33,805 bases of DNA, taken from a virus (lineage: Duplodnaviria > Caudoviricetes). The notes under the pieces are model-generated. The model worked only from the letters and a program-made list of their open reading frames with translations. It was not told the origin of the DNA and ran no database searches. How positions within the stretch are numbered: position 1 is the first letter of the stretch; each line of letters starts with the position of its first letter. Positions 109 through 30,091 of the stretch are shown in pieces. The stretch spans positions 1 through 33,805 of the IMG/VR virus record IMGVR_UViG_3300043443_000410. One strand, given 5' to 3'. The position numbers were made by a program, and so were the translations under genes.

Positions 109-519
109 ATGCCCAAGAAGAAGATGCCGGCGGTCGTTGAAGGAATCCCAACCGTACCGCCAGCCGATTTGAATCCCGAGGAAAAAAAGTGTTACGCCGT
201 GCTGCATTCACAGGTAGCACGATCCGGCCATGTGAGCAACACATCCTTGGAGTCGTTCCTGCTTCTGGTGCATCAGCGAGCCAGGCTAAACCGCATCCGG
301 CGTGAAGTGGACGCGCTCGACAGTTGGATGATCGCTGGCAGCACTGGACAAGGCGCTTTGCATCCGATGGTCAAGGAATTGCGCCAAATGGAAACCGCCT
401 ACGCCAACCAGCTTGGCAAACTGCTGATGGATCCGCGCAGCAAGGTCACCTCCAGAGCCAAGGAGGATCAGGTGCTTGCGGTGGCAGGTGACAATCCGAT
501 CCTGAGATCGCTGGGATGA
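109..519 (+). CDS. terS: Terminase small subunit (P27-like)
   Basis: Directly upstream of terL with ATGA overlap; C-terminal HP...LGKLLMDPRS resembles the P27-family HP...LGLTP.SR motif. Confidence 0.8.
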   Translation: MPKKKMPAVVEGIPTVPPADLNPEEKKCYAVLHSQVARSGHVSNTSLESFLLLVHQRARLNRIRREVDALDSWMIAGSTGQGALHPMVKELRQMETAYANQLGKLLMDPRSKVTSRAKEDQVLAVAGDNPILRSLG

Positions 520-2090
520 GCATGGCCAGAGCGCCAAAACGGCGTGCAAAGAAACCATTGGCCACACTTCCTAGCGAGAAGTTCCGGAACTTCTGCGCCC
601 AGTATCTCACCCATGTGCATGGTCCGTTGCGCGGACAGCCTTTCCTCCTGGAGGAATGGCAGATGGAACGGATCATTCGTCCGTTGTACGACACCATCCG
701 CAGGGATGGTCTGCGCCAGTACCGGACCACCTATGTCGAGATCGGCAGGAAGAACGGCAAAAGCTTTCTGGCCATGGCGGTGGCGCTCTACGGTCTGATC
801 TGCGATGGCGAGCCGGGAGCGCAGGTGATCAGTGCCGCCGGCACGCGGGAGCAAGCCAGCCTGGTGTTTGATGTGGCGCGCGCCGCAATACTGGCCAACC
901 CGATCCTGCGGCGCATGTGCCGCGTCTACAAAAAGGTGATCGAAACGCAGGACGGAAGCACCTACAAGGTAGTGAGCGCGGACGGTTTTAATGCCCACGG
1001 CCTTTCGATTTCCACGCTAATTTTTGATGAACTGTGGGTTCAAAAAAAACCGGACCTGTACGAAGCGCTCACCACCTCGATGGGAGCGCGCAAGCAACCG
1101 CTGTCCTTCCTGATATCGACATCCGGATTCGACAAGAACACGATCTGTTACCAGACGCACAGCTACGCCAAGCGGGTGCGTGACGGCATCGTCGAGGATC
1201 CGACCTTTCTGCCGGTGCTGTTTGGCGCTCCCGAGGAAGCGGACTGGAAGGACCGCAAAACTTGGTTGAGCGCCAATCCCAATCTTGGCGTTTCGGTGTC
1301 TGAGGAATTCTTGGCCAATGCCTGCCGCGAGGCGCAAGAAAATCCGGCCAAGGAAATCAGTTTTCGGCAGTTCTTCCTGAGCCAATGGGTGTCGGCTGAA
1401 TCTCGGTGGTTCAGCCTGGACAAGATCGATGCCGCCATGGTGGATGAAAAGAATTGGCCGGACCTAACCGGCAAGGATTGTGTCCTCGGCCTCGACCTGT
1501 CCAGCACGACTGACCTGACCAGCATTGCCGCTGTCTGGTCGGTGGACGGCGTGTTTTACCTCGACTCCTGGTCATGGGCACCGCGTGGAGCGTTGGCGAC
1601 GCGGGAAAAGGCCAACCGCACACGGTTCCAGCCATGGGAAAAGTCCGGCCATGTGGTCGTGACAGATGGCGAGGTGATCGATTACACGGCCATCCACCGG
1701 CATATCGAGGACTTGGCAACCCGATTCAACATCCGCGAAATAGCGGTGGACAAGTGGAACAGCGTGGCGCTGTCCAACCAGTTGCAGTCGGAAGGCCACA
1801 CGGTGGTGGCATTCCCGCAGGGTTTCGCCAGCATGTCGCCAGCGTCCAAGGACTTCGAGGCGCTGGTGACATCCGGGAAAGTTCGCATCCGCAAGAATCC
1901 GCTGTACCGCTGGGCCTTCTCCAATGTGTCCATGGTTCAGGATCCAGCCGGGAATGTCAGGCCGGACAAGTCACGCAGCGGCGACAAGATCGACCCGGTG
2001 ATCGCCAGCCTGATGGCGATTGCCAGGGCGAGGCACCATGAGGCATCCAGCCGATCCGGGTACGAGTCCGGCGGACTGATGGTCCTGTGA
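516..2090 (+). CDS. terL: Terminase large subunit
   Basis: Walker A GRKNGKS, Walker B LIFDE, coupling motif ISTSG, RNase H-like GLDLSSTTDLT, C-terminal KIDPVIA. Confidence 0.97.
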   Translation: MSMARAPKRRAKKPLATLPSEKFRNFCAQYLTHVHGPLRGQPFLLEEWQMERIIRPLYDTIRRDGLRQYRTTYVEIGRKNGKSFLAMAVALYGLICDGEPGAQVISAAGTREQASLVFDVARAAILANPILRRMCRVYKKVIETQDGSTYKVVSADGFNAHGLSISTLIFDELWVQKKPDLYEALTTSMGARKQPLSFLISTSGFDKNTICYQTHSYAKRVRDGIVEDPTFLPVLFGAPEEADWKDRKTWLSANPNLGVSVSEEFLANACREAQENPAKEISFRQFFLSQWVSAESRWFSLDKIDAAMVDEKNWPDLTGKDCVLGLDLSSTTDLTSIAAVWSVDGVFYLDSWSWAPRGALATREKANRTRFQPWEKSGHVVVTDGEVIDYTAIHRHIEDLATRFNIREIAVDKWNSVALSNQLQSEGHTVVAFPQGFASMSPASKDFEALVTSGKVRIRKNPLYRWAFSNVSMVQDPAGNVRPDKSRSGDKIDPVIASLMAIARARHHEASSRSGYESGGLMVL

Positions 2091-2113
2091 GTTCGCTTGG
2101 TTTTTCAGAATCG
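2088..2113 (+). promoter_or_regulatory. Putative phage late promoter, copy 1 (before portal)
   Basis: TGAGTTCGCTTGGTTTTTCAGAATCG; same motif at 4125 and 13267. Confidence 0.65.
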
Positions 2114-2117
2114 GAGT

Positions 2118-3377
2118 ATGGCAGACAGTATCCTAAGCCGCATCCGCCAAACCGTTTCCAGCCTGTTCAGCGCCGGCCAGCGCGGTCGTCCGCTCATCCT
2201 GCACGATTACAACGCCATTGAGCGCGCATGGAACGGCAGGCCTATCGCCAGTGAATACCTTGGCATCCCGTCAGTTCTGGCTGGCCTGCGCCTGATCTGC
2301 GAGACGGTGGCCGGCCTGCCGCTGCATTACTACCACCGCCAACAGGATGGCGGAAGGAATCGCGCGGAAAATCAGGTTGCCGCCGATGCGTTCAAGTATT
2401 CCGAAGGCCGTAACGAGTTTGAACTGCGATCCAGCCTGATGTTCCGCATGTTGGCCGAAGGCGTTGCCTACGCCAGGGTGTGGAAAAACCAGGCCAACGA
2501 GGCGTACAAGCTGCAAGAGATTCCCGGCGATTGCATCATCGAAAAGGTTGACGAGATCACCGGTTCAAAGGTTTACGGCATCAAGTCCGATCCCTACCAA
2601 AACGACGCGGAAACATGGGTTCCCGAACGGGACATGTTCATCCTGAAAGGTTCCTTCAATGGCAACAGCCTTTTGGAACTTTGCCAGGGATCGCTGGAAC
2701 TGACCAAGGCCGCGCAGGAATACGGATCGACGCTGTACGCCAACGGCGCAAGGCCTTCTGGCGTGCTGACTCACCCAGGCAAATTGTCAGACGATGCGCG
2801 CCGTCGCCTGCGATCAGACTTTGAAAAGCTGCACACCGGTCTGGCCAATGCCGGCAGGATTGCCGTGCTTGAGGAAGGCCTGTCCTTTACACCGACCAGC
2901 ACATCACCGGAGGACGCGCAGGCGATCCAGACCCGCGAGTTTCAGGTGCGTGAAGTCTGCCGGATCTTCGGCATCCCGCCGGCCAAGATGGGACTGGCTG
3001 GCGGTGGGGAAAGCATCGAGGCGCAGAACATCCAGTTCCTGACCGATTGCATCCAACCACATCTGGTCCGGTTCGAGCAGGAATGCAACAGGAAACTGGT
3101 CAGGGAATCCGACTGGGGCTGGTACACATGGTCCCATAGCGTCGAAGGGTTGCTGCGCGCTGACATCCTCACCCGCTACAAGTCGTACAGCATCGGGCGC
3201 AACTGGGGCTGGCTCAGTGTTAACCAGATCCGCAAACTTGAATCGTGGGATCCGATCCCCGGCGGTGATGTGTTCCTCAGTCCGACCAACATGCAACCGC
3301 TGACAGACACGCCACCTGGGGCCAGAGCGCCTGCCGGTGATCAGCCAGTTGATCCGGTGGAACCTCTCAATGGCTGA
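2118..3377 (+). CDS. Portal protein, HK97 family
   Basis: NGARPSGVL, AVLEEGL, EVCRIFGIPP, LLRAD, GWLSVNQIRKLE motifs; ATG at 2118 preferred to the TTG at 2097. Confidence 0.95.
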   Translation: MADSILSRIRQTVSSLFSAGQRGRPLILHDYNAIERAWNGRPIASEYLGIPSVLAGLRLICETVAGLPLHYYHRQQDGGRNRAENQVAADAFKYSEGRNEFELRSSLMFRMLAEGVAYARVWKNQANEAYKLQEIPGDCIIEKVDEITGSKVYGIKSDPYQNDAETWVPERDMFILKGSFNGNSLLELCQGSLELTKAAQEYGSTLYANGARPSGVLTHPGKLSDDARRRLRSDFEKLHTGLANAGRIAVLEEGLSFTPTSTSPEDAQAIQTREFQVREVCRIFGIPPAKMGLAGGGESIEAQNIQFLTDCIQPHLVRFEQECNRKLVRESDWGWYTWSHSVEGLLRADILTRYKSYSIGRNWGWLSVNQIRKLESWDPIPGGDVFLSPTNMQPLTDTPPGARAPAGDQPVDPVEPLNG

Positions 3378-3591
3378 GTCCGCTTGGGATGGCGTGCTGT
3401 TGATTCTGGGTGAGGCGAGAACACCGCGCCACCTGCCACCCGGTCCGCCATCCGCCCCGCCGATCCGGCTCAGTTTTGAGGACATGGTTTCCGACGATCC
3501 GGAAACAACCGAGACAGGACGCATCCGCAGGACATCCATTCGGGGAGAATTCCGATGCTCACCGCCGGAATCGATATCGAACGACGCGTAG
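3370..3591 (+). CDS. Hypothetical Pro-rich protein between portal and protease
   Basis: ATG overlaps the portal end and the ORF fills the gap before the protease; no recognisable family. Confidence 0.4.
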
Positions 3592-4127
3592 GCAGCCTTG
3601 CCGCCGTTGAATCCGAAGGCAACAAGCTGCACGGCTACGCTGCGGTTTTCAATCAGCCCAGCGAGAATCTCGGCGGTTTCCGCGAGTTTATCGCTCCAGG
3701 CGCTTTCAAACGATCGCTGGATTCCGGCGAGGATGTCCGGGCGCTGCTCGATCACGACACACGCTTGGTGCTGGGGCGCAGGTCAGCAGGCACGCTTCGC
3801 CTGCATGAGGACAGCAAAGGCCTTGCGGTGGAGATTGACCTCCCATCCACCAGTTACGCCAGGGACGCGGCAGAACTGATCCGTCGCGGCGATGTGTCCC
3901 AAATGTCGTTCGGGTTCACCATCCCGCAGGGCGGAGACGAATGGTTGCCGCCGGAAGGCGACGAACCATTGCGCCGGCGAATCGTCCGCCAGGCAAACCT
4001 CATGGAAGTTTCCGTTGTGTCAATCCCGGCCTATCCGCAGACGGAAATCGGCCTGAGATCTCTCACCAGATGGTTGATGGATCGGAATAAGAACTGCTTC
4101 AAGGTTTTGGGTTTGCGTAGGTTCTGA
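3555..4127 (+). CDS. Prohead protease (HK97 family)
   Basis: [38 protein letters not shown]. Confidence 0.95.
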
Positions 4128-4150
4128 GTTCGTTCGGTTTCTTAGTTTCG
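4125..4150 (+). promoter_or_regulatory. Putative phage late promoter, copy 2 (before major capsid)
   Basis: TGAGTTCGTTCGGTTTCTTAGTTTCG. Confidence 0.65.
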
Positions 4151-4179
4151 ATTTTATGACCCTATCCCAGGAGTATCGG

Positions 4180-5544
4180 ATGTCTGACATCAACATTTCA
4201 AAAGCCGGCAGGCCTGAACTGCTGGAAGCGCGTTCGGCAACGATGGCGATCCTCGCCGGAATGCAAGAGCGGCAACTTACCCCCGAGGAACAGGCCGCGT
4301 TCGACGGTCTGGTTCAGCAAGTAAACGAGATCGATGCACGACTGCAAACCGTGGAGGCTGAAGTTATGGCTGATCCTGCTGTTGATTCTGGTGACGCTCC
4401 GGTCGATCAGACCGCAGCGCGTTCCCTTCCCGCCGTGGCCGAACTGCCGCCTGTGCCTGCCGCCAGCGAGCCGGTGCGGGTTGCCGTTCCCGTTCCGAAT
4501 GTCGTGCGCGACTGGAACGACCGGCGCGCCATCCGCAACAAGGACTTGGCGCTTCGTGGCTGGGCGCTCCAGCCGACCGGTCTCTGCTCCGCCGAGCATG
4601 TCCGGGCCGCCAGCGAGATCGGTTTCAACCTGAACAACAAGGTTCTGAACCTGCGCCTGCTGGACAATCCCAAGAAGGAAACCCGCGCCCAGTCCGCCGG
4701 GACCGGCAGCGCCGGCGGCTACTTGGTGCCGACCGACCTGATCCGCAGCCTCGAAACGGCGCTGGCCTACACCTGCCCGATCCGGAACTTTGCCCAGGTG
4801 ATTCGCACCGCCAGCGGCAACCCGATCGACATTCCCACTGTCGATGACACCAGCAACAACGGCGAACTGGTGGCGGAAAACGCTTCCTACGCGACGCAGG
4901 ATGTGACATTTTCCAAGGTGACCCTGAACGCTTACAAGTTCACCAGCAAGCTGGTTTTGGCCTCGCTGGAACTGCTTCAGGATTCGGCCATCGATGTGGC
5001 CACCATCCTGGGCAACCTGCTGGGCGAGCGCATCGGTCGCAGCCAGCTTGGCTACTTCACCACGGGCACCGGTTCCAGCCAGCCGCAGGGTGCGGTGACC
5101 GGATCCAGCGCCGGCGTGACCGCCGCCAGCGCGACTGCCATTGCCGTGGATGACCTGCTCGGATTGGTTCACAGCGTGGATCGCGCCTACCGCGATGCTG
5201 GCGCATTTATGATGCACGACAGCGTTCTGCTTGCCGTCCGCAAGTTGAAAGACTCAACCAACCAGCCGATCTTTACCCAAAGCTACATTGTGGGTGAGCC
5301 GGATCGACTGTTCGGTTATCCCGTTGTCATCAACAACTCGATGGCCAGCACCGTGGCAACCACCAACAAGACGGTGCTGTTTGGCGACTGGTCCAAGTTC
5401 ATCATCCGCGACGCGCTGGACATCCAGCTTGTCCGGTCGGACGAGCGTTACATGGAATACGGCCAGTCCGCATTCGTGGCGCTGGCTCGCACCGACTCCA
5501 AGGTGACCATTTCCGGCGCCTTGAAGCGGCTCACCCAGGCCTAA
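4180..5544 (+). CDS. Major capsid protein, HK97 fold, with N-terminal delta (scaffold) domain
   Basis: Coiled-coil N-terminus, AGGYLVP, LFGYPVV, LFGDWS; SD AGGAG before ATG 4180 (alternative start 4156). Confidence 0.95.
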   Translation: MSDINISKAGRPELLEARSATMAILAGMQERQLTPEEQAAFDGLVQQVNEIDARLQTVEAEVMADPAVDSGDAPVDQTAARSLPAVAELPPVPAASEPVRVAVPVPNVVRDWNDRRAIRNKDLALRGWALQPTGLCSAEHVRAASEIGFNLNNKVLNLRLLDNPKKETRAQSAGTGSAGGYLVPTDLIRSLETALAYTCPIRNFAQVIRTASGNPIDIPTVDDTSNNGELVAENASYATQDVTFSKVTLNAYKFTSKLVLASLELLQDSAIDVATILGNLLGERIGRSQLGYFTTGTGSSQPQGAVTGSSAGVTAASATAIAVDDLLGLVHSVDRAYRDAGAFMMHDSVLLAVRKLKDSTNQPIFTQSYIVGEPDRLFGYPVVINNSMASTVATTNKTVLFGDWSKFIIRDALDIQLVRSDERYMEYGQSAFVALARTDSKVTISGALKRLTQA

Positions 5545-5571
5545 TCCCAGCGCGGGGACCGGCCTGTATCG

Positions 5572-5610
5572 ACCGGTCCGGCGGGATGCTCGCCGGACCG
5601 GTTTGTTCTT
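5572..5610 (+). terminator. Rho-independent terminator after the capsid gene
   Basis: ACCGGTCCGGCG / CGCCGGACCGGT perfect 12-bp stem followed by TTGTTCTT. Confidence 0.7.
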
Positions 5611-5624
5611 GGGGAGAGTGAACC

Positions 5625-5837
5625 ATGTCCGTGGAAGTTGTGCTGCTGGAATCATTCGCCAATACCGTCACCGCTTGGATGCCTGGTCAGCTTTTCCAGT
5701 GCGCCGATCAGGCCGAGGCTGATCGGTTGGTTGAGCGTGGTCTGGCGATCCCGGTCACCAGCACCGGAGTCAATCCGGCTCCGGAAACCGAGACAACCAG
5801 CACCGAGGAAGCGCCGAAGGCCAAGAAACGCAAGTGA
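5625..5837 (+). CDS. Small head-associated hypothetical protein
   Basis: EADRLVERGLA motif and Lys-rich tail, typical of small genes that follow the capsid gene. Confidence 0.7.
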   Translation: MSVEVVLLESFANTVTAWMPGQLFQCADQAEADRLVERGLAIPVTSTGVNPAPETETTSTEEAPKAKKRK

Positions 5838-5844
5838 GGTGACG

Positions 5845-6450
5845 ATGTTCCTGGAACGGATCACCGCGCCGGCCAGCGAGCCGGTGACACTGGCCGAGGC
5901 CAAGGCGCACCTCCGGGTGGATCACAGCGACGATGACACGCTGATATCGGCGTTGATATCCACGGCGCGAGATCATGTCGAGCGCACCACCAGGCTGGCG
6001 CTGATACGGCAGCAATGGCGCATGAGGCTGGAGGACTTCCCGGCTGATGGAGCCGACATAGAAATCCTGCGCCGTCCGCTCATCACGACATCCGGTACCT
6101 ATTCGCCTGTTGTCACCTACTACAACCCGGACGATGTCACCACCACATCGTGGGATCTTGATGATGAGGAGTTTCTGGCCTACAACGGCAACCCGCCGAC
6201 CTTGGCCATCTGGGGAACAGCAGGCTGGCCGACGCTTGACTCAGAGCGCAAATACCCGGTCGAGGTGACTTTTTACGCAGGATTTGGCACCAGCGGCGCT
6301 GATGTGCCGGGACCGATCAAGCAGGCGATGCTCCTGCTGATCGGCAATTGGTACATCCGGCGCGAGGCGGCTAGCCAAGAGGCCGGTTTGCCGGTGCCGT
6401 ATGCGGTGGAAAGTTTGCTCTCGCTGTACGATTCCGGGGAATACCAGTGA
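5845..6450 (+). CDS. Head-tail connector (gp6-like adaptor)
   Basis: EPVTLAEAKAHLRVD and IKQAMLLLIGNWYIRRE; start revised to ATG 5845 after GAGGT. Confidence 0.9.
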   Translation: MFLERITAPASEPVTLAEAKAHLRVDHSDDDTLISALISTARDHVERTTRLALIRQQWRMRLEDFPADGADIEILRRPLITTSGTYSPVVTYYNPDDVTTTSWDLDDEEFLAYNGNPPTLAIWGTAGWPTLDSERKYPVEVTFYAGFGTSGADVPGPIKQAMLLLIGNWYIRREAASQEAGLPVPYAVESLLSLYDSGEYQ

Positions 6451-6779
6451 TCCCAGCCGGCAGGATGCGGCACCGTGTGGCTGTCCAGTCGCCAGCAACG
6501 ACCGTGGACAGTTACGGCCAGCCAAGCCTGACATGGTCCACCGTTTCAACAGTGTGGGCCGAACTCGTCGGACGCGGTGGCGGCACGCAGGCCATCGTGA
6601 ACAAAGGACAGGTTACGCTCGGCCACACCGTGCGGATTCGATACTGTGCCGCATTTTCAACGATGGATGAAACTTGGCGCTTGCTGCTGGGTTTCCGTGT
6701 GCTGGAAATCTCCAGCGTGGCCAATGTGGACTACCTGAATGAAATCCTTGAATTAACCTGCTCCGAGGAAGTGGTCTAG
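6447..6779 (+). CDS. Head closure / head-tail joining protein
   Basis: AGRMRHRVAVQ...DSYGQ...W...VWA pattern; position after the adaptor. Confidence 0.88.
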   Translation: MIPAGRMRHRVAVQSPATTVDSYGQPSLTWSTVSTVWAELVGRGGGTQAIVNKGQVTLGHTVRIRYCAAFSTMDETWRLLLGFRVLEISSVANVDYLNEILELTCSEEVV

Positions 6780-7865
6780 GTGGCAGACCTTGGCTACAAG
6801 CTGGAATTCAATGGGGCGGACAGGCTGATCCGGACCGTGCTGCAATTCCCCAGGAAAAAACAGCAGGTATTCCGGTCGGTTGCGCGCGCTGTCGGTCGTG
6901 TCCTGATACCTGCCATCCGATCCAGCATCCGCGCCAGGCTGGGAATCAACCGCCTGCGGGAGGCCGCAAAGCCAAGCCGGTTGTCCAAATTCCTGTCAGC
7001 CGCCGGCAAGCAGTCCGCCGACTACCAGAAGAAACTCAAGAAGCTGCTCAAGCCGCATCTGTCGGCGGCTCGCAAATCCAGCAAGCGCGCCATGAAAGTG
7101 GCCAGCAAGTTTGGAAGCAAGATTTCCAAGGCTGCGCGCAAGGATGCCGACAACCTGATGCGCGAGGTGTTCAGCGAGTTTGGCATTCGGCTGAAACGCA
7201 AAAAAAAGCCGGCAGTGGCCAAGGCTGAAAAGCCGCAGCGCATCGAGCAGGCAAAACCTGAGAAGCCCAAGCGCGGCAGGCCACCGAAACCGGGCAGAAT
7301 CAAGAAGCGAACCTATAGCGTGGACCAGATCCGTGGAATGATCACAACGCCAGAAGAGCGCGAACTGCTCCGGTTTGCCATCACGACCAAGGGCGCATTT
7401 GGAACCAAGAACAACACCGTGCAGGAAATCGGATCGACCGGCGCTCTGGCCAAGTCAATCGGTGTCAAGATCCACATGGTAAAGAAAAAATCCTTTGCCT
7501 ATTCACCCAGCGGAAAACTTATTGGCGGCAGCGGAATTCGCAGTAGCGGAACAAGTGACGATTGGAAGAATGTCAAATGGAAATCAATTAGCTCTGGCCG
7601 TGTTGTCTGCGTTGTTGGGCCGCGCAAAGGATTTCAGGTCACAGCATGGAATCCTTTTGTCAACAAATTAGTAACGCACGACCCGTACAAGTACGCATGG
7701 TGGGTTGAAAAAGGTCACCTGCTGAAAGTGCGAGGCCAATCAACCGGCAAGCGCGTGAAACCTTATCCGTTCATTCGTCCGGCATTTGCGGCAACACAGG
7801 GCCAGGTTCGCACGCTGGTTCGCGAAAAACTGCGTGTGGAAGTGGCCAAGCTACTGAGCCGTTAG
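6780..7865 (+). CDS. HK97 gp10-like neck protein with a large basic insertion (AT-hook)
   Basis: TGALAKSI, VVGP, YAWWVEKGH, PYPFIRPAF motifs; internal K/R-rich segment containing KPKRGRPPK. Confidence 0.75.
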   Translation: MADLGYKLEFNGADRLIRTVLQFPRKKQQVFRSVARAVGRVLIPAIRSSIRARLGINRLREAAKPSRLSKFLSAAGKQSADYQKKLKKLLKPHLSAARKSSKRAMKVASKFGSKISKAARKDADNLMREVFSEFGIRLKRKKKPAVAKAEKPQRIEQAKPEKPKRGRPPKPGRIKKRTYSVDQIRGMITTPEERELLRFAITTKGAFGTKNNTVQEIGSTGALAKSIGVKIHMVKKKSFAYSPSGKLIGGSGIRSSGTSDDWKNVKWKSISSGRVVCVVGPRKGFQVTAWNPFVNKLVTHDPYKYAWWVEKGHLLKVRGQSTGKRVKPYPFIRPAFAATQGQVRTLVREKLRVEVAKLLSR

Positions 7866-7874
7866 GAGGTTCCC

Positions 7875-8282
7875 ATGTCGGCGCTGGGAAAGGCGATCCG
7901 CACGCATCTGGTGGCGCAGACCGGATACTCGGCCACAATTCCCGGCGGGATTTCTCCCGAGATTGCGCCGGCTGGCGTGACCATGCCGTTCGTGGTGTAC
8001 ACCGGCAGCGAGGACGCACCGGTCCTCAAGCTGGACGGGACGACCATTTGCCGGCAAGCCAGCGTCAATTTTGTCGTGACTGCGATGACGCGAAGCGACT
8101 GCGAGTCCGTGGTCGCATGGCTCAGGACCAAGCTTGAGCAGGGAACTTGGGTAGGCACGGCCAATCCAAAGGTTTTTTTCTGGCGTATCACCAGCCAGTC
8201 GGATGTTAGCGAAGTCATTCTGGACGGATCGGATGAGTCTGTCCGGTTGGTTAATTTACAGGTTGATGGGGCTTACATTTAG
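7875..8282 (+). CDS. Tail terminator / completion protein
   Basis: Position before the tail tube; AP..vtmPFVVY motif; SD AGGAGG. Confidence 0.75.
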   Translation: MSALGKAIRTHLVAQTGYSATIPGGISPEIAPAGVTMPFVVYTGSEDAPVLKLDGTTICRQASVNFVVTAMTRSDCESVVAWLRTKLEQGTWVGTANPKVFFWRITSQSDVSEVILDGSDESVRLVNLQVDGAYI

Positions 8283-8293
8283 GAGGATTTCCA

Positions 8294-8713
8294 ATGCCTG
8301 ATCCGGTATTTGCCGCCGGCACGACGGCCAGCTACGCGCCGGTTTCCGGCGGTGCTTCCGTGACCATGACCGGCCTCACCGCAATTGGTGGCAACACCAA
8401 GACGCGCACAACCGCCGAAACAACCCTGCTTAGCGACACGACCCTGAAGCGCCGGCCAGTGCGGACCGATCCCGGGACTGTGCAGTTCACCTTCCAGTTG
8501 AACGACACCGCAACCGCCACCAACGAATGGTCGGCGCTTAATACCCTGCTCGGAGCCGGCACACTCATCACCGTGACGGTGAACATGCCTGGCGCTTTCG
8601 ACTCGACGGCGCTCTACTCGTGGTCCGGGTTCCTGTCGGACCTGACCACGCCGGAATTGGCAGCCAACGACACGATGCTGACCTACACGGCAACCCTGAC
8701 GGTGACCGCCTGA
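8294..8713 (+). CDS. Tail tube protein (paralog 1)
   Basis: Strong SD AGGAGG; DPGT motif; Thr-rich beta character; canonical position. Confidence 0.75.
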   Translation: MPDPVFAAGTTASYAPVSGGASVTMTGLTAIGGNTKTRTTAETTLLSDTTLKRRPVRTDPGTVQFTFQLNDTATATNEWSALNTLLGAGTLITVTVNMPGAFDSTALYSWSGFLSDLTTPELAANDTMLTYTATLTVTA

Positions 8714-8716
8714 CAT

Positions 8717-9136
8717 ATGCCAAACCCCGTGATGGCCGCCGGAACGAAGGTCTGGACGCGCGCCAGCGGGGTTGGATCGTATGTCGAGTTGCCTTATGTG
8801 CTGGGAATTTCCGGCAGCGGATTGACCAGGGCATTCAGCGACAACACAGCGGCAAGCGAGATGACGGTTTCCCGGACCATCGGCAGGGTGGATCCGGGAA
8901 CCATCAGCATCACCCAGCACCTGGAGGATGTGGCGACCGCATCCAACACCTACTCAGGCTGGCGCGCCGGGTTGACAGGGGCCAGCAGCTACGACATCAA
9001 GTTTGACATGCCGTACTCGGCGGACGATGGATCGAACCTGCTGGTCTTCACCGGCGTGAAACTCACCAGCGTTTCAGCTTTGGACATGTCAAGCAGTTCC
9101 GGCCTTGTGACATATACCATCACCTTTCAACTATAA
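8717..9136 (+). CDS. Tail tube-like protein (paralog 2)
   Basis: Same length as and collinear with paralog 1 (MP.PV.AAGT, R.DPGT, ATA.N, TYT). Confidence 0.7.
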   Translation: MPNPVMAAGTKVWTRASGVGSYVELPYVLGISGSGLTRAFSDNTAASEMTVSRTIGRVDPGTISITQHLEDVATASNTYSGWRAGLTGASSYDIKFDMPYSADDGSNLLVFTGVKLTSVSALDMSSSSGLVTYTITFQL

Positions 9137-9146
9137 GGAGGCGTTT

Positions 9147-9473
9147 GTGCTGACCCGCGACAGTTTCAAACCCTATGCGCTGCTCAAGCGCGAACGGCTG
9201 GACATTCCGGAAATGAGCGACTTTGTCTATGTGCGGGAATTGTCCGCAGGCGAGGCGCTGGAATTCCGCAGACGCATGAGCGCCGGCGAACCGTTCGAGT
9301 CCTTGGTTTTGCCAATGCTGGCCAAGGTTATCGTTGATGATAAGGGCATTCAGGTTTTTGATCCGTCCGACACGGATCTGATCGGCAAGGCGTTTCCAAT
9401 CGAAGTGATGGAGCGAATAGCAAACAAGGCTCAGGAATTGTCAGGACTTCTGGGGAAATCGGAAAAAAACTGA
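9147..9473 (+). CDS. Tail assembly chaperone gpG
   Basis: VYVRELS motif; ends EKN-stop on a slippery site; lies between tube and tape measure. Confidence 0.85.
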   Translation: MLTRDSFKPYALLKRERLDIPEMSDFVYVRELSAGEALEFRRRMSAGEPFESLVLPMLAKVIVDDKGIQVFDPSDTDLIGKAFPIEVMERIANKAQELSGLLGKSEKN

Positions 9474-9808
9474 CACACCAGCGGCGCTTCATGATGGCGC
9501 TGGCCGGCCACCTGGGAAGAACGGTGGCCGAACTGGAAGCGACGCTGGGTGCTGGTGAACTGGAAGAATGGATCGCCTTGGCGCAAGAGGAACCGTGGGG
9601 ACCATTCCGGCAGGATGTCTTGGCAACGCTCGGTTGGTCTTATGCGGTGATGGCACCGCACCTGAAAGATCCGGCTGACACGGCGAAGAAGATTACCTTG
9701 CCGTGGTGGAAAGACAGGCCGGCTGAGAATGTCCGGCAGGTGACACCCGAGGAAATGCGCTTGGCGCTGTTGTCGCTGGGTGCCAAACCGGTGGAGTCCG
9801 ATGGCTGA
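9464..9808 (+). CDS. gpT part of gpG-T, reached by -1 frameshift at A AAA AAC (9464-9470)
   Basis: -1 frame is open from the slip site (KKLTHQRRFMMALAGHLGRTVAELE); classic lambda G-T arrangement. Confidence 0.85.
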   Translation, partial: KKLTHQRRFMMALAGHLGRTVAELEATLGAGELEEWIALAQEEPWGPFRQDVLATLGWSYAVMAPHLKDPADTAKKITLPWWKDRPAENVRQVTPEEMRLALLSLGAKPVESDG

Positions 9809-10910
9809 ATCCATTTCCAACCTAGCCATCACCGTGGCGCTCGACGGCACCAAGGCCGAGTCAGGCCTGAACCGAGTTGCCGACAAGGTCGAGGATTTTG
9901 GCAAGCGGATGTCGGCTGTCAGCCAAATTGGTGCCGGCCTAGGCTCCATCCTTGGCGCTTTCAAATTTGGCGTGTTTGCTGCCGCCGGCGCTGGCGCTGT
10001 CGGGATGCTTAAAAATCTGGCAGCCAGCGCAAAGGACGCGCTGCTTGCCGAGGAAGCGCTACAGTTCAGCCAGGTGGCAGACCAAGGCGCTCTGATGCAA
10101 CAGCCGCAATGGCTTGGATCGATGACCGGCCAGATGGCGCTTCTGTCCGAGTCATGGGACAACCTGATACTGCGTTTGGCGGAACCGTTTGAAGGAGTCA
10201 TCAAGGAAGGCCTCGCATTTATGCGCGGCGTGTTTGAGGGTGTCGCGGTTTTTGCCGAGGAAATCGCCAGAGCATTTGGTTGGGTAAAGGATGATGACGG
10301 CAACTTTGAAAACCTTCAAAACATATTCAAGGTTGTCCGGGACTACACCATCGACATCGCCAAGGCGCTCACCGGCTCGATCAAATATTTTGTCGATGGG
10401 ATCACAACCGGTCTGGCAGAACTTCGCAAGATCACCAATCCCGGCGCTTTCAAACAAGCCTGGAACGATGTTCTTTTGGATTTGGGTTTGCGGAATCGCC
10501 GGCAATACAACCAGGCGATGCGCGCCAATGCCCAGGAATTTGCCAACAATCAAAACAACGGCGCGCTTGCAGGGTTCCAAGCTGGCCTCGAAAACTTTAG
10601 CGCAATGCTTGGAAATCTTCAGAACAATCTTGAGGAGGCCAAGGGTCGGGAGCGCCAACCACGCCTGAAGGTTCCAGCCATGGAACAGGCTCCGGAAAAC
10701 ATATTTGCGGCAGCTTTGGAACGCGGATCGGTTGCCGAATGGGAAAGCAGGATGCGTGATCAATTCAGCGCCGAGACGGTGAACATCCAAGAGCAGATTG
10801 CAGACAATACCAACAGGACTGTGTTTATCCTGGAACAGATGGCGCAAGGCGTGCTTGCAGCCGGCCAAGTTGTCATGCCTGGCCTGCTTGAATTTGGAAA
10901 GGGATTCTAA
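9801..10910 (+). CDS. Tape measure protein (short, ~369 aa)
   Basis: Follows gpG-T; N-terminal ISNLAITVALDG; Ala/Gly-rich helical composition. Confidence 0.8.
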   Translation: MAESISNLAITVALDGTKAESGLNRVADKVEDFGKRMSAVSQIGAGLGSILGAFKFGVFAAAGAGAVGMLKNLAASAKDALLAEEALQFSQVADQGALMQQPQWLGSMTGQMALLSESWDNLILRLAEPFEGVIKEGLAFMRGVFEGVAVFAEEIARAFGWVKDDDGNFENLQNIFKVVRDYTIDIAKALTGSIKYFVDGITTGLAELRKITNPGAFKQAWNDVLLDLGLRNRRQYNQAMRANAQEFANNQNNGALAGFQAGLENFSAMLGNLQNNLEEAKGRERQPRLKVPAMEQAPENIFAAALERGSVAEWESRMRDQFSAETVNIQEQIADNTNRTVFILEQMAQGVLAAGQVVMPGLLEFGKGF

Positions 10911-11876
10911 ATGGGATACACCAGCTTCAAGGAACTGGCTGGCAAATCCGGCTCCGTCAATTCGAGCTACCAGCGCCAATACACCCGGCAGTTCCGAATC
11001 ATCACCGACGACGCGACTCACGGTCCCTACTATGTCGGAAGCCATCCCAGCCTACCGCTGATTTTTTCCGCATATCCGGAAGACGCAAACGCTTTCTGCG
11101 TGTCACTAAATCCCCAGCAGGATTCAGACAACCCATTGGCATGGACGGTCACGGCGCAATACGCCTACGCCATGGACTCATGGGCCGGCGGTGGTGGCGG
11201 GGTTGGGCCTGTGGCAACAGGCAACCCGCAGATAGATAGCCAGCAGAAAGGCCAGCCGCCGGCCAGCAGGGCATCCGCTCCACTTTCGAGGCCTCGCGAT
11301 TACAGCTTCCAAACCATCAATGTCGGCCAACGGGTTGTTGAAAAGGATGTTGTGACCAATGAACCGATCGTGAACACGGCAGGCGATCCAATAGCGCCAC
11401 CCTACCTGATAGACATTCCGGCGATCGCAATCACCATCGGCCTGAACAGCACGACAGCACCTGGGGATGGTTGGGTTTCCGCGCTGGGAAAAATCAACAC
11501 CAACACGCTGACAATCGGTTCTTGGATCATTGCCGCCAAGCGCGCAAGATTGCGTGGCATTTCGGCCAACCTTGTCTATGAGGAAGGACTTTCCTATTGG
11601 CGCTGGCAGATCAACTTTGAGGTGCGTTATAGCTGGAAATGGGATCTCAGGTCGGTTGGCCTTGAGGCGAAGCAGTACGCCAAGGACGGGGCTGGGAATC
11701 AAATTGTGGTGAAAGGCCCAATCAAAAAGAATGGTAAGTACATCACCCAGCCAGTTGGATTGGACACCAACGGTTTTGTGGCGGAAAACACCAAGGCCGG
11801 CGGAGTCTGGACCGACAACGCGGCGCAGTTGTCTTTTGATGTGATTGAGTCCACAACCTTTCCGAGTCCGCTCTAA
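10911..11876 (+). CDS. Putative tail tip / baseplate protein
   Basis: Immediately after the tape measure; family not recognised. Confidence 0.55.
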   Translation: MGYTSFKELAGKSGSVNSSYQRQYTRQFRIITDDATHGPYYVGSHPSLPLIFSAYPEDANAFCVSLNPQQDSDNPLAWTVTAQYAYAMDSWAGGGGGVGPVATGNPQIDSQQKGQPPASRASAPLSRPRDYSFQTINVGQRVVEKDVVTNEPIVNTAGDPIAPPYLIDIPAIAITIGLNSTTAPGDGWVSALGKINTNTLTIGSWIIAAKRARLRGISANLVYEEGLSYWRWQINFEVRYSWKWDLRSVGLEAKQYAKDGAGNQIVVKGPIKKNGKYITQPVGLDTNGFVAENTKAGGVWTDNAAQLSFDVIESTTFPSPL

Positions 11877-12346
11877 TGCCGCAGGAAATCGGATACACCA
11901 TTTCCAGCGAGTCAGCCGAACGGCTGGCAACGATGCTGCGCGCCTTTGAAGGCGGCAGGCTGTCCAAAAAGTTTGGCAGCGATGAGGACGATTATGTCAG
12001 CCAGCCTGGCGATGGTGTCGAGTTTGTCCAGGTCACCGGCACGACAACGCCGGCTGGCGATCATCTGGCGAAGATAGTCTGGTGGGACAACACCAACGAC
12101 GAATGGCGTTCAGACGATACCGAAATCATAGTTCGTGAACCGGACGGCAAAACGCTGCCAAACGGCAAGTACATCGCCAAATACATGTTCACCAGGCTGA
12201 TCAGCGGATCGACTACCAAGGATGTGTATGTGACCAGTTCTGGTCCAATCCTGTCCATTCAGGTGGTGACAGACATCACCTGTGTTAGCGGCGTGTTAAC
12301 CGTGACCAAAAAGACGCTTCACATCCCAGGCGGCAGGTCCACCTGA
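11876..12346 (+). CDS. Putative minor tail protein
   Basis: TAATG coupling to the previous gene; tail-region position. Confidence 0.55.
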   Translation: MPQEIGYTISSESAERLATMLRAFEGGRLSKKFGSDEDDYVSQPGDGVEFVQVTGTTTPAGDHLAKIVWWDNTNDEWRSDDTEIIVREPDGKTLPNGKYIAKYMFTRLISGSTTKDVYVTSSGPILSIQVVTDITCVSGVLTVTKKTLHIPGGRST

Positions 12347-12960
12347 TGGCAACATCGGTAACAGGATCCGAGGACTACAAGGGGCCATCCGCAATTTCCC
12401 TGCCACCTTCAGGCGGGGCAACTGGGACAACAGGCGGAACCAGCACCACAACGCTCACTTGCACGCCGTGCTGCGCTCCTCCAACCAACTTTCTGGCCGG
12501 GTGGTTTGGCTCTTCCGGTCTTTGCCCAAGCGCGACAGACAACACGGTTCCAATCCCGCTTGACGCGTCATTCTCATTCACGGCTAATTCGCCATATACT
12601 CTTGGCGGATTGTGCCTGCCATCGTCCGCCACGGTTTCCATGGTTGCCGACAATTACAACACATCCGCACAGCAAAACCTTTACTGGTCGAGTCCGGGAA
12701 CATGCACGACTATATCCCCGCCAACAACGAGAATTCTGGGTAAAAGCGGTTTCATTCCCTACGAAATTCTCCCAAGCGGAAACATCCGTTCTATATACCC
12801 AAGGATTTGCAACTGCTATTCTTTTGGATACATCTCTCTCTACATTTCCGAGACCACATCCCCTACCTATTCTTGCAGCCCTTTTTCCATCACATTCACC
12901 GGAACAATGTACGACGGATACACCCAGGTCGGCACCTTCTCAGTCACTTTCACATTGTGA
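12346..12960 (+). CDS. Ser/Thr/Cys-rich putative tail tip or adhesin protein
   Basis: TGATG coupling; CTPCC motif; lower GC in the 3' part. Confidence 0.55.
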   Translation: MATSVTGSEDYKGPSAISLPPSGGATGTTGGTSTTTLTCTPCCAPPTNFLAGWFGSSGLCPSATDNTVPIPLDASFSFTANSPYTLGGLCLPSSATVSMVADNYNTSAQQNLYWSSPGTCTTISPPTTRILGKSGFIPYEILPSGNIRSIYPRICNCYSFGYISLYISETTSPTYSCSPFSITFTGTMYDGYTQVGTFSVTFTL

Positions 12961-13283
12961 GTTACACCACCAAACCTTGTCCGCATGACCCAACCGCCTG
13001 CGAATGCCGGGTGTGCCATCTGTACCTGACCAACCCGGAATACAACCGCCTCTGGGGTGGCACCGGCATCGATCCAGCTTTTCGCCGGCAATGGATCAGC
13101 CGCGCCACCACGCCATGCGTTCACCTTGGCGAAAACATCGAAAATCCAACCACCTGTGGATGCGGTGTGGCGGTTTTGCGTGCGTGCGCCTTGCATGGCC
13201 AGTGCCGAAGGATTGGCCAGCCAAAAGCCGGGGAAAAGGTTTGCGCCACCTGTCCGGACTGGCAGGTGAGTTCGTCGGGTTAA
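12957..13283 (+). CDS. Cys-rich hypothetical protein (~108 aa)
   Basis: GTG start overlaps the previous TGA; CECRVC, CVHLG, CGC, CALHGQC, CATCPDW motifs. Confidence 0.7.
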   Translation: MSYTTKPCPHDPTACECRVCHLYLTNPEYNRLWGGTGIDPAFRRQWISRATTPCVHLGENIENPTTCGCGVAVLRACALHGQCRRIGQPKAGEKVCATCPDWQVSSSG

Positions 13284-13292
13284 TTATCTTCG
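13267..13292 (+). promoter_or_regulatory. Putative phage late promoter, copy 3 (before the putative lysis cassette)
   Basis: TGAGTTCGTCGGGTTAATTATCTTCG, followed by ATG at 13297. Confidence 0.65.
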
Positions 13293-13296
13293 AGGT

Positions 13297-13980
13297 ATGA
13301 CACCCGCACTCATATTTCTGTTGTTTTGCGAGATCAAAGCACCGCCAGAGGTTCGCACGCCGTGCAACCGTCTGGCGCGCGTCGAAATCACCTCCACCGG
13401 CAAAAACACCATCCTGATCCAGCCAGCCGGCGACTGTGACGCATTCCAAGAGGTTGCGGCATCCGGCAAACTGTCCTTCCGGGTGATCTGTTACACACCG
13501 GGGAGGTACCGTTTAACGTTCGTAAGCGCTTCTGGCGATGTGCCGGAATATGCCACAACTGACATAATCGCCGGGGATGTCCCGCCACCCACGCCACCGG
13601 CTCCGGTGCCACCGGCTCCCACACCCACGCCGGATGACATCACCCGGGATCCCCTCTACGTTGCTCTGTCCAACATCCTTGGCGGCTTGCAGGAACCGGA
13701 CCAGCAAGCCAGCCTGAAAACACTTGCCGAAATTTACCGTCAAGGCGAAATCATGGCGAGCCAGCACGGCACGCTGGGCGCGTGGACCGGCGCATTGCGA
13801 CTACTCAGCCAGCAAACCAACCTCGGGAACAAGCTATTGGCGGTGCGCCAGCGTATTGCCGACGAGTTGTCCAACACTCTTGGAACTGATCCGGCGGCCA
13901 TCCTTGCGGGGGGACTCGGCGCACGATGCGCCGCGCAGTGCCGCCGGATCAGCCAAATTCTCAACACTCTGGCGCGGTGA
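13297..13980 (+). CDS. Exported two-domain protein with a Pro-rich linker
   Basis: Hydrophobic N-terminus ALIFLLFC; PPPTPPAPVPPAPTPTP linker; helical C-terminal domain. Confidence 0.7.
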   Translation: MTPALIFLLFCEIKAPPEVRTPCNRLARVEITSTGKNTILIQPAGDCDAFQEVAASGKLSFRVICYTPGRYRLTFVSASGDVPEYATTDIIAGDVPPPTPPAPVPPAPTPTPDDITRDPLYVALSNILGGLQEPDQQASLKTLAEIYRQGEIMASQHGTLGAWTGALRLLSQQTNLGNKLLAVRQRIADELSNTLGTDPAAILAGGLGARCAAQCRRISQILNTLAR

Positions 13981-13984
13981 ACGA

Positions 13985-14884
13985 ATGGCTGAAGAGATTC
14001 AGGACTTCGGATGGATCGAGGACCCCGCCGCAGTGGATGCGGTGTTGGCCTCGCTACCCATGCCGACATGGGGAGACACGCCGGCCAGCGCCGTGGATGA
14101 GGCCAAACTGCCGGACGAGGTGTTGGGATGGCAGGCATGGCAAAAGGCCAGCGGAACGGCATGGCCTGAACTGTCTCAGGGTTCTGTTGGCTCCTGCGTT
14201 TCGTTCGGAACCAGCCATGCGTTGATGTTCACCATGGCCTGCGAAATCCTTGCCGGTGATGACGAGGAAACCAAGATTCCGTGCATGGAGGCCATCTACG
14301 GCGGTTCCCGTGTCGAGGTCGGCGGCGGCAAAATCTCCGGGGATGGCTCGGTAGGCGCTTGGGCAGCCGAGTGGGTACGCAACTGGGGAGTGGTCGCGCA
14401 GGGTGTCTATGGCTCCTATGACCTGCGGAAATACGATCCAAAACGCTGCCGGGACTGGGGGCGCGGTGGAGTACCACCGGAGATCGAGGCCGAGGCGAAA
14501 AAACATCCAATCGGCGAATGCACTCTGATTACCTCGTTCTCGGATGCCGTCTCAGCCATTGGCCAGGGTTACGGCGTGCAGGTGGCCAGTACCCGGGGAT
14601 TCTCACTCAAACGCTCAGAGGATGGCTATTCCGCGCCCAGTGGCCGGTGGGGACATTCGATGTCGTTTATAGGCTACAGGCGCGCCGGGAAACGGCCTGG
14701 ATTGTTCATCGTGAACAGTTGGGGATTCCAGTCAACCACCGGTCCAAAATCGCACCCGGACGCGCCGTCATCCGGCTGGTGGGTGGATGCCGAGGTGGCG
14801 GATTCCATGCTGCGCCAGCGGGATTCTTTTGCATTCTCACGGTTCACCGGTTTCCCTGCTCGTTCCATCAATTGGCTGATCTGA
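13985..14884 (+). CDS. Papain-like (C1 family) cysteine peptidase
   Basis: QGSVGSC (oxyanion Gln and catalytic Cys), GHSMSFIGY (His), IVNSWG (Asn); start revised to ATG 13985. Confidence 0.9.
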   Translation: MAEEIQDFGWIEDPAAVDAVLASLPMPTWGDTPASAVDEAKLPDEVLGWQAWQKASGTAWPELSQGSVGSCVSFGTSHALMFTMACEILAGDDEETKIPCMEAIYGGSRVEVGGGKISGDGSVGAWAAEWVRNWGVVAQGVYGSYDLRKYDPKRCRDWGRGGVPPEIEAEAKKHPIGECTLITSFSDAVSAIGQGYGVQVASTRGFSLKRSEDGYSAPSGRWGHSMSFIGYRRAGKRPGLFIVNSWGFQSTTGPKSHPDAPSSGWWVDAEVADSMLRQRDSFAFSRFTGFPARSINWLI

Positions 14885-14892
14885 GGTTGTCC

Positions 14893-15153
14893 ATGGATGC
14901 TGTCCAATTCATCCGCGAGTTCGGTTTGCCAACCATGGGCCTGTGTGTGGCTGGGTATGCGTTTTATCAATGCTGCGCCTGGATAGCCAAAGAATTGATT
15001 GTGCCGCTGCGGGATCGCCACTTTGCGTTCTTGTCCTCACTGGAAAGCACGCTGTCTGTCCTGGCGAAAACCCAGCAGCAGCTAGGCACCGAGATCGAGC
15101 GGATCACCGACATGATTCAAGGTGGCCAGTTCAAACCCAAGGATAAAGCGTAA
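14893..15153 (+). CDS. Holin-like single-TM protein
   Basis: 86 aa; EFGLPTMGLCVAGYAFY hydrophobic segment then a charged coiled-coil-like tail; SD GAGG. Confidence 0.55.
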   Translation: MDAVQFIREFGLPTMGLCVAGYAFYQCCAWIAKELIVPLRDRHFAFLSSLESTLSVLAKTQQQLGTEIERITDMIQGGQFKPKDKA

Positions 15154-19602: not shown

Positions 19603-20030
19603 TTCAGTTGCCGGACCTGCGGCAGCAAACCGACTACGACTGCGGTGCCGTGTGCTGCCAGATCGTGTGGCAGTATTTCGGGATGCCACGCCGGAAGGTC
19701 GATTCCAACCAGATCGATGGCACCGATCCCAGAACGCTCGAAGCTGCGCTGCGAGTTTCAGGCCTGCCGGTCCTCAGCGGGGAAATGACGGTATCGGATC
19801 TGGTGTATTTTGCGCGCAGCAAAAGGCCGACCATTGTCCTGGCAAAAACTATTGGTGAACCTGTGACTGGTCATTACATGGTCTGCGCTGGCAGCCGGGA
19901 CCGGCGGTTGCATTTTCAATGTCCCACACGCGGACCGATCGTCGAAACGCCGAGGCGGTTCGATAAGCGCTGGCACGATGTGGACCGGCATGGGACGGTG
20001 TTCAGGCGGTGGGGAATTGTGGTGGGTTAA
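19599..20030 (+). CDS. C39-like cysteine peptidase, stand-alone
   Basis: QQTDYDCGAVC and GHYMV motifs. Confidence 0.8.
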   Translation: MIQLPDLRQQTDYDCGAVCCQIVWQYFGMPRRKVDSNQIDGTDPRTLEAALRVSGLPVLSGEMTVSDLVYFARSKRPTIVLAKTIGEPVTGHYMVCAGSRDRRLHFQCPTRGPIVETPRRFDKRWHDVDRHGTVFRRWGIVVG

Positions 20031-21178: not shown

Positions 21179-21421
21179 TTTCGGTAATCCTAACCGAGCT
21201 TGCTCCTTTGCGTTTTTCCCTTGTTTTCCAGAGGTTTTGGGTATTCGGGGCGACAGGATTCGAACCTGCGACTTCTTGGTCCCAAACCAAATTGAAAAAT
21301 CGGGAAAAGACTACAAAACAAGCTGTTTTTGCAGTTCAGCCACCGTTCTGGCGACCAACACTTACCCCCATTTTCCCCTGATTTCTTCGGTACGGAAGTG
21401 CAATTTCGGTAATTCGGTAAT
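21107..21421 (+). repeat. Eight direct TTCGGTA(AT) repeats flanking the att core (putative integrase arm sites)
   Basis: TTCGGTA at 21108, 21128, 21141, 21160, 21180 and 21386, 21405, 21413. Confidence 0.75.
21245..21290 (-). other. attP core: 3' half of tRNA-Pro(TGG)
   Basis: Minus strand reads TTGGTTTGGGACCAAGAAGTCGCAGGTTCGAATCCTGTCGCCCCGA = anticodon arm, T arm and acceptor 3' strand; no 5' half. Confidence 0.9.
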
Positions 21422-25262: not shown

Positions 25263-25613
25263 GTGAAACAGAACGACCTTTTTGGAGGCGTGGATGCCTA
25301 CGGTATGCAGTTGCCGCCACCAACAGGAGCGGAATTGCGGGACAAGGCGATTCAGCAGGTGGCCGCAAACGCTCCACCTAACTGGATTGAGGACACGATC
25401 AACGCCATTCGGCATGTGTCACTTACTCATCGGCTGATCAGTTCGGATGACGTGTGGCCGCTGGTCATTCATCCGCCAGAACCACGCGCTATGGGTGCAG
25501 CGTTTCAGGAAGCAGCACGCCGAAACATCATCCGGAAAACTGACCGGGTGATTTCTAGTCGCAGGCCGGAATGTCATGGAAGGCCGATTGCAGTTTGGGA
25601 GGTGGTGGCATGA
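25263..25613 (+). CDS. Hypothetical phage protein
   Basis: PRAMGAAF...SRRPECHGRPIAVW pattern common in phage early regions. Confidence 0.75.
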   Translation: MKQNDLFGGVDAYGMQLPPPTGAELRDKAIQQVAANAPPNWIEDTINAIRHVSLTHRLISSDDVWPLVIHPPEPRAMGAAFQEAARRNIIRKTDRVISSRRPECHGRPIAVWEVVA

Positions 25614-29366: not shown

Positions 29367-29834
29367 ATGCCAGTGATTCGATTGACGGATAAACAACGCG
29401 ACGATGCCGGTTCCAAAGTGGAGTTGGCCAGGCGCATGGCCAGGCGGTTCAGGCCGCCACCAAGCATGAGCGCGGACGAATGGGAATGCGAGGTGATGAT
29501 GGTGCTGGTGGAGACGGTTGCGACCTGTAGTCCTAATACGAACTTTGAGGCATATTTTTTCATGAAATGCCGTTGGCGAAAGTTAAGCCTGATTGAGAAG
29601 TACCGGCGCACCCACGCGGCCTTGGCATTCGATCCGGAGTGCAGGCCGCAGAAGCGGCACACGCTCGACGATGTGTTGGAAGGTGTGAGTCCCATGGATT
29701 CGGACATCATCCGCTTGAGGTTGGCAGGCGGTCGCTGGCCGACGATTGGCATGGCATACGGCGTTAGCGGAAGAACCATCCAGCGCTGGCACGATGCGGC
29801 GCTGCGAAGGATTCGGCGGAGGGTGATGGCGTGA
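29367..29834 (+). CDS. Sigma70-family (ECF-size) sigma factor-like protein
   Basis: Region 2-like LARRMARRF...FEAYF and region 4 HTH SPMDSDIIRLR...IGMAYGVSGRTIQRW...ALRRIR. Confidence 0.72.
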   Translation: MPVIRLTDKQRDDAGSKVELARRMARRFRPPPSMSADEWECEVMMVLVETVATCSPNTNFEAYFFMKCRWRKLSLIEKYRRTHAALAFDPECRPQKRHTLDDVLEGVSPMDSDIIRLRLAGGRWPTIGMAYGVSGRTIQRWHDAALRRIRRRVMA

Positions 29835-30091
29835 GCAAACCATATCGAAACAAGATTGACCTAATTAGGGCAAGCGAAGCTTTTAGCCTTGATGATTCCA
29901 CGCCTAGCGGTCTTCGCTGGAATTTTGGCCACGGCAACACCAACTCTGGAAAGCCGGCGGGTTGCCTAGTCGACAAAGGCTACAAGCAGTACTGGCAAGT
30001 TATCTGGAGGAAAAAACATTACTACTGCCATCGAATTGTCTGGGCTATCAAAAACCAAAAAGACCCAGCGAAAAAGAAGGTGACCACATGA
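29831..30091 (+). pseudogene. Truncated HNH homing endonuclease (N-terminal part only)
   Basis: SGLRW...GKPAGC...Y..HRIVW present, but the ORF stops before the expected DH...N catalytic motif. Confidence 0.55.

Follow-up and report, generated by a model that had tools for sequence, protein, structure and literature searches.

What is the 26-base-pair motif that occurs three times in the virus record IMGVR_UViG_3300043443_000410, and which proteins read it? The record holds 33,805 bases of a freshwater HK97-type temperate phage and was analysed as one complete stretch (the window). Judged from its letters and their conservation, the motif is very probably a promoter. Such promoters are probably served by the host sigma factor together with a phage activator, and for that role our candidate is the product of open reading frame (ORF) 33052, below called X, for which the case is evenly balanced. 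Taken together, we slightly favour a reading of the three copies as phage-specific late promoters, where the host sigma reads the -10 box and X most likely lets the polymerase use the upstream box TGAGTTCG.

All three 26-mers are present letter for letter as the earlier note gave them, i.e., at 2088..2113 (copy 1), 4125..4150 (copy 2), and 13267..13292 (copy 3), and each is followed by an ATG after 4, 5, and 4 nucleotides (nt), respectively (at 2118, 4156, and 13297). The copies as well as all genes named in this paragraph are on the plus strand. Copy 1 opens with the TGA stop codon of the terminase large subunit gene (terL, 516..2090) and copy 2 with that of the prohead protease gene (3555..4127). 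Pfam confirms the noted downstream genes, i.e., the portal (2118..3377, PF04860) and the HK97-type major capsid protein (4180..5544, PF05065), while copy 3 precedes ORF 13297. The latter copy overlaps the end of a Cys-rich frame, which stops at 13283 in the window. In relatives, the TGA of copy 3 is itself the stop of this frame, i.e., a deletion in the window has shifted the stop.

The pattern of the 17 positions shared by the copies matches just these three sites in the window even if up to three mismatches are allowed. Shuffled sequences give on average 0.06 matches, and none of 100 shuffles reaches three. Since this pattern was derived from the three copies themselves, conservation in relatives is the better test. 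Here, we found 13 distinct sites, anchored by flanking sequence, in front of the orthologous genes (4 portal, 5 capsid, 4 ORF 13297). Thirteen of the 17 positions stay invariant in all of them, namely TGAGTTCG, GTT, one A, and one T, while the remaining four do not, and the terminal TCG is not invariant. The third-codon identity between the window and its sister clade is 0.59 for terL and 0.53 for the protease gene. That the 13 positions are kept despite such divergence argues for selection on 13 of the 17. Where close relatives (80-97% identity, among 80 portal loci) cover the region, the motif is always kept. An exact motif scan of viral contigs returned seven stretches, five of which are orthologues of copy 3 and two of which are chance-like. 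In a third group of relatives, the terL and portal genes as well as the protease and capsid genes overlap, and no site is found there. The relation of the motif groups is not resolved by the terL tree.

Within each copy, TGAGTTCG occupies positions -30 to -23 and is followed by GGTT, an nAnnnT -10 box, and the predicted transcription start (+1). In copy 1, the box is at 2088-2095, GGTT at 2099-2102, and the -10 box CAGAAT at 2106-2111, such that the predicted +1 coincides with the A of the portal ATG at 2118. Copy 2 has its box at 4125-4132, the -10 box TAGTTT at 4143-4148, and a predicted +1 at about 4155, and copy 3 shows the box at 13267-13274 and TATCTT at 13285-13290, with the ATG at 13297 as predicted +1. 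That is, the -10 box covers motif positions 19-24, the invariant A and T are its positions 2 and 6, and the ATGs of the portal gene and ORF 13297 lie six bases past it. All three hexamers show the TAnnnT-type -10 pattern of sigma70 promoters about 6 nt before +1. An nAnnnT box six bases before an ATG is the layout of a sigma70-type -10 element with a leaderless message, and A-11 and T-7 are the bases flipped out by group-1 sigma factors. Both are invariant in 13/13 sites, while T-12 is found in 9/13.

The earlier note had proposed a bipartite late promoter of -35/-10 type. The bipartite promoter itself is supported by inference from this anatomy, while the -35/-10 assignment is not supported, as the upstream box is at -30 to -23 and its first hexamer is separated from the -10 box by 12 nt. 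No TTGACA-like hexamer with a spacer of 16-18 nt is found at any copy, i.e., positions -36 to -31 read GTCCTG, AGGTTC, and GGCAGG, and the three sites are not among the matches of a canonical promoter consensus scan of the window. The proposed leaderless messages for the portal and ORF 13297 agree with an ATG at the predicted +1. Likewise, the short leader suggested for the capsid gene fits the predicted 25-nt leader of copy 2, which carries AGGAG as Shine-Dalgarno (SD) sequence ahead of the ATG at 4180. The ATG that corresponds to 4156 in the sister clade is followed immediately by a stop, and the capsid gene there starts after AGGAG, which supports 4180 as the capsid start. A possible weak fourth copy at 8234..8259 (plus strand) shows 11 of the 13 invariant positions and TAATTT as -10 box. 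It lies inside the tail-completion gene, 60 nt ahead of the tail-tube ATG, with its spacing kept. Alone it is not significant, i.e., its score is no better than that of the best shuffled site, and one further site with 11/13 positions occurs in the window on the minus strand at 27783.

More distant relatives (about 40% portal identity) carry another box at the same places and with the same geometry, i.e., ATCGTG-N12-TAnnnT-N6-ATG. To assess the spacing, we counted ATCGTG-Nk-TAnnnT in distant viral loci (about 688 kb in total) and observed a peak for k=12 (18 distinct sites vs. 0-6 for other k). No such peak was found in 80 GTDB terminase loci (4 sites for k=12; range 1-8). Sites of this type precede the portal, capsid, and HNH genes. 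An ATG exactly at +1 is found in 12/23 of them (10/21 when two sites fetched by an ATG-bearing search are excluded), and TG at -15/-14, i.e., an extended -10 element, also in 12/23. Two phages fetched later (G416, G415) repeat the pattern. A scan for TRATCGTG-N12-TAGnnT-N6-ATG returned mostly unrelated contigs. Beside these sites, two loci (L113 of G005, and L039) show a 350-nt gene-free stretch between the RusA and HNH genes after a single ATCGTG site, with short A-rich repeats. Two Gemmataceae prophages (L210, L212) carry another short word (CTAGATAC and CTAAATAC) after the terL and protease stops.

The host of the phage is assigned to Gemmataceae since its 43-base attachment core (attP, 21247..21289, plus strand, adjoining the integrase gene) matches the tRNA-Pro of this family, and this sequence-based assignment is probably correct. 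The core reads as the reverse complement of the 3' half of tRNA-Pro(UGG) and is matched in 19 of 101 genomes of the Gemmataceae, the family of G006 (6 of the 19 exactly), compared to 0/301 in a sample of genomes from the phylum. In 1.05 Mb of a genome with an exact match, TTGAC-N-TAnnnT occurs 13 and 20 times for spacers 16 and 17 and 4-8 times for others, and TAnnnT-N6-ATG shows a small peak (14 vs. 2-8). The RpoD of Gemmataceae has ordinary regions 2.4 and 4.2. Neither box is enriched in host DNA, i.e., the full motif is found in 3/61 genomes vs. 4 control hits, and the ATCGTG type 37 times with spacer 12 vs. 91 times over three other spacers (81 genomes). Given ordinary host promoters and no enrichment of either box, we infer a phage factor. 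A host housekeeping promoter of this shape was considered and rejected; an apparent enrichment compared to a reversed-pattern control was erased by the spacer control.

X (33052..33708, plus strand) belongs to an unnamed family that adjoins the cohesive-end site (cos) and is encoded between the RusA and HNH genes. Its conserved part covers about residues 1-115. The HNH endonuclease gene (33395..33700, plus strand) lies in another frame wholly under the C-terminal extension of X, an overlap that is also seen in the sister clade. In other temperate phages, late activators sit at this genome position (PMC3753634). We found X in the window, the main arm of G002, G003, G004, G415, and G416, and all six carry bipartite sites. 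Two near-complete records have no X match, i.e., the complete record G417, which has no site, and G005, which has one. G001 and G002 are chimeric joins of two phages with inflated lengths. For that reason, G001 was left out of this count, and G002 beyond about 35 kb was counted as belonging to another phage. In four loci (L102, L084, L107, L298), the ATCGTG site begins at or just past the X stop codon.

Among the phages with the ATCGTG box, X is very divergent (32% mean column identity in the alignment), and its C-termini QLSLF, QLELF, and QTTLF resemble sliding-clamp motifs by sequence, while the X of the window has no C-terminal clamp motif. No family or fold match was obtained in Pfam, PHROGs, NCBIfam, or the PDB, which includes MotA and AsiA, and none among 50,697 GenBank phages; the ESM Atlas gave no usable match for the protein itself. 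For the Mor family, Pfam shows no match for 8 X members (E up to 10) or for 56 ORFs of the window (E up to 0.01). The C-terminal segment of X has weak chromosomal matches (E 1e-4 to 1e-3) in 3/3 planctomycete genomes searched, a host protein sharing it occurs in only 2/61 genomes of the phylum, and the ESM Atlas neighbours of the segment are unnamed Planctomycetota clusters. Small chromosomal planctomycete proteins with this segment are encoded in L217 (1465-1698, minus strand), L216 (1348-1647, plus strand), and L218, and those of Gemmataceae have an additional Cys-rich part at the N-terminus.

We also predicted the complex of X(1-115) with residues 112-570 of Gemmataceae RpoD. Its score of 0.67 compares to 0.18 for the best of three controls. 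The mark applied to this score is reached by 116/157 solved but only 2/215 mismatched pairs, a calibration that is only roughly valid for our own alignments. Contact agreement of the runs is at least 0% and the partner pLDDT (predicted local distance difference test) at least 65. All confident predicted contacts are within RpoD 501-561, i.e., region 4, and include on the X side the invariant residues E47, W61, A100, and L106. No solved structure of a relative of X is known, which makes it less likely that the model passed by recalling one, though sigma region 4 is frequently seen as a partner in solved complexes. The prediction thus supports, and does not show, binding of X(1-115) to region 4.

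Several observations weigh against this assignment or against the promoter reading as such. X adjoins cos and the terminase genes, such that its co-occurrence with the sites may be plain linkage, and in G005, a single exact ATCGTG site exists without an X match. No recognisable DNA-binding fold was found in X (best fold-search Z 6.3), with HTH_32 matching weakly and below the cut-off in 2/8 members. The complex prediction used our own alignments, one of its three runs scored close to zero (0.67, 0.01, 0.69), and the RpoD was taken from G044, which is linked to the phage host by att sequence alone. The loci in which ATCGTG was counted are also those that had first drawn attention to this box, and G415 has just the variants ATCGGA and ATCGTA before portal and capsid. 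With regard to the window, copy 1 has C instead of T at -12, and no motif copy precedes HNH or terS, unlike in several ATCGTG phages. GGAG/GAGG purines directly abut the ATGs of the portal gene and ORF 13297, which would fit a role in translation. Finally, the contigs from RNA runs are short, scattered, low-depth pieces that are unable to show starts.

Such a role would make the motif a signal in the RNA that couples or represses translation and spans a stop and the next start. Besides these SD-like purines, the upstream stop codon forms the first bases of the motif at 2/3 sites in the window, and a TGA or TAA overlaps the box in 15/23 ATCGTG sites. We nevertheless consider it very improbable: 17 sites fold differently without a common hairpin, the TGA of copy 3 is not a stop in the window, one site is within coding sequence (L068) and another 40 nt past the stop (L083), the capsid start is 25 nt past the predicted +1, and the fixed nAnnnT-N6-ATG spacing suits a promoter rather than an RNA signal. 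A stop-codon read-through or SECIS-like (selenocysteine insertion) role was rejected, since a frame continued through copy 2 runs into a TAG and does not join that of the capsid gene. If the sites are promoters, a host factor alone could read them, i.e., a second large sigma70-family protein of Gemmataceae or an activator of a small regulon. Further RpoD-like sigmas exist in 5/5 host genomes searched, the ATCGTG box is kept across phages with very divergent X proteins, and the site of G005 fits as well. This is set against the counts in host genomes, where neither box is in excess with a 12-nt spacer, and the near-canonical region 4.2 of the second host sigma, such that we regard it as distinctly unlikely.

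A reader encoded by the phage itself had been sought by the earlier note in ORF 29367 (29367..29834, plus strand), a sigma factor of extracytoplasmic-function (ECF) type with regions 2 and 4 (TIGR02937 match, 9e-07) and with ECF sigmas as best fold matches (all with E above 0.001). Distant cousins exist in relatives, with one to three sigma-like genes in every near-complete relative examined. The sister clade keeps all three sites, yet we found no orthologue there, i.e., none in the arms examined of G002 (main arm) and L434. Its sole sigma-like gene encodes a 254-aa Zn-ribbon protein at a different position, with 27% identity over 59 aa. As ORF 29367 is not co-inherited with the motif, it is weakened as reader. 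Furthermore, the region-4 helices of the sigma-like proteins of ATCGTG phages visibly differ while the box is constant, G417 has two sigma-like genes and no site, and the -10 box is of housekeeping type, often with TG. Reading by a phage ECF-like sigma is therefore unlikely in our view. Divergent genes of this kind (one to three each in G002, L298, L099, and G417) partly show a C-terminal Cys-rich extension. The host sigma might also cooperate with a phage activator other than X, e.g., the 116-aa product of ORF 25263 (25263..25613, plus strand). It is 85% identical in the sister clade, and its clamp-motif-like N-terminal QNDLF agrees with Qx[D/E][L/M]F, the consensus of Mor/MuC N-termini (PMC12867686). 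On the other hand, a 69% identical homologue is present in G417, which lacks the site, and ORF 25263 was not found in the ATCGTG phages, which leaves this option a slim chance. Clamp-motif-like words are also seen at a terminus of the early ORFs 25571 (QGLLF) and 29962 (QGELF).

Under our preferred reading, X would dock onto host sigma region 4 once the lytic cycle has reached its late phase, and the holoenzyme carrying X would engage the box at -30 instead of a -35 element. The box might be read by X itself or by the repositioned region 4, while the host-type nAnnnT -10 box would still be opened by the host's main sigma. Internal promoters of this kind may raise the expression of each of the three gene blocks (portal, capsid, and the third one) on its own, whereby the portal and ORF 13297 messages would be leaderless and that of the capsid would carry an SD leader.

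The closest parallels are found in other phages. T4 middle promoters likewise combine a host sigma70 -10 box with a phage box near -30 that replaces the -35 element, and the T4 proteins MotA and AsiA act on sigma region 4 (PMC6755090), as predicted for X. This likeness of the boxes concerns their position alone. In contrast to T4, the sites here serve late genes of a temperate phage with one candidate protein and predicted leaderless messages, and the box centre is nearer to -27. With the C and Mor proteins of phage Mu, the system shares the small number of late promoters, which have a -10 and lack a -35 element, as well as the use of host RNA polymerase with sigma70 and a small phage activator (PMC12867686). 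By sequence, the C-termini of X in ATCGTG phages come close to a clamp motif such as Mu C requires for late transcription (PMC12867686). Unlike these proteins, X shows no Mor-family match, the box is not the TTAT-N5-6-ATAA dyad, and the C-terminal domain of sigma70, which X is predicted to bind, is dispensable for MuC (PMC12867686). That is, the system would work like T4 sigma appropriation and Mu C activation while X matches neither protein family by the tests run.

Thermus phage Lalka27a is similar in its many late TANNNT promoters with starts 6 nt downstream, leaderless transcripts, and an extra conserved base at -25, and a phage factor has been proposed for it (bioRxiv 10.64898/2026.04.20.719267). 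Its specificity is within the TAGGGT -10 box, whereas here a 6-8-base box at -30 is combined with a degenerate -10 element. The Ltr late activators of Gram-positive phages differ in that their target is a repeat region ahead of terS (PMC3753634), while the sites of the window are inside the late region with none before terS.

In the literature on planctomycete promoters and phages or on phage late promoters, we found no account of how phages control their late genes in planctomycetes, with most subscription papers outside this scope. If true, the reading defines a promoter class and names a candidate for its activator, including the surface on sigma region 4 that this protein is predicted to contact. 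T4 MotA/AsiA and Mu C would then be joined by a third way of redirecting the host polymerase without a phage sigma, and planctomycetes, for which few genetic tools exist, would gain a promoter-activator pair that can be induced. A further-reaching and rather doubtful extension is that ORF 33052 founds a family of single-protein appropriators of sigma region 4, which re-space the holoenzyme from 17 to 12 nt, have the specificities TGAGTTCG and ATCGTG, and are mostly tied to replication via a C-terminal sliding-clamp motif. Their C-terminal segment would be common to the small planctomycete protein, making the latter a sigma-binding regulator of the host itself; this would be a first functional lead for that protein.

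Concerning the remaining genome, terS starts at 109 and the integrase is encoded at 20027-21178. A scan of GTDB with the single terL protein gave no match. The block after copy 3 (13297..15153, plus strand) shows no Pfam family. The ORF 13297 product has a hydrophobic N-terminus, ORF 13985 is papain-like by motif alone (weak cathepsin match, E 0.35), and ORF 14845 encodes a small membrane protein. A putative lysis role, as the earlier note had it, is plausible. A terminator-like hairpin of 15 pairs follows the capsid gene (5571-5603) and is kept in relatives. Two tandem tail-tube-like genes (8294-8713 and 8717-9136) are about 35% identical to each other, with a short tape-measure-like gene (369 aa) downstream. 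The early region holds a CsrA-like gene (22345-22593) and a queuine tRNA-ribosyltransferase-like gene (phrog_887, 30088-30852).

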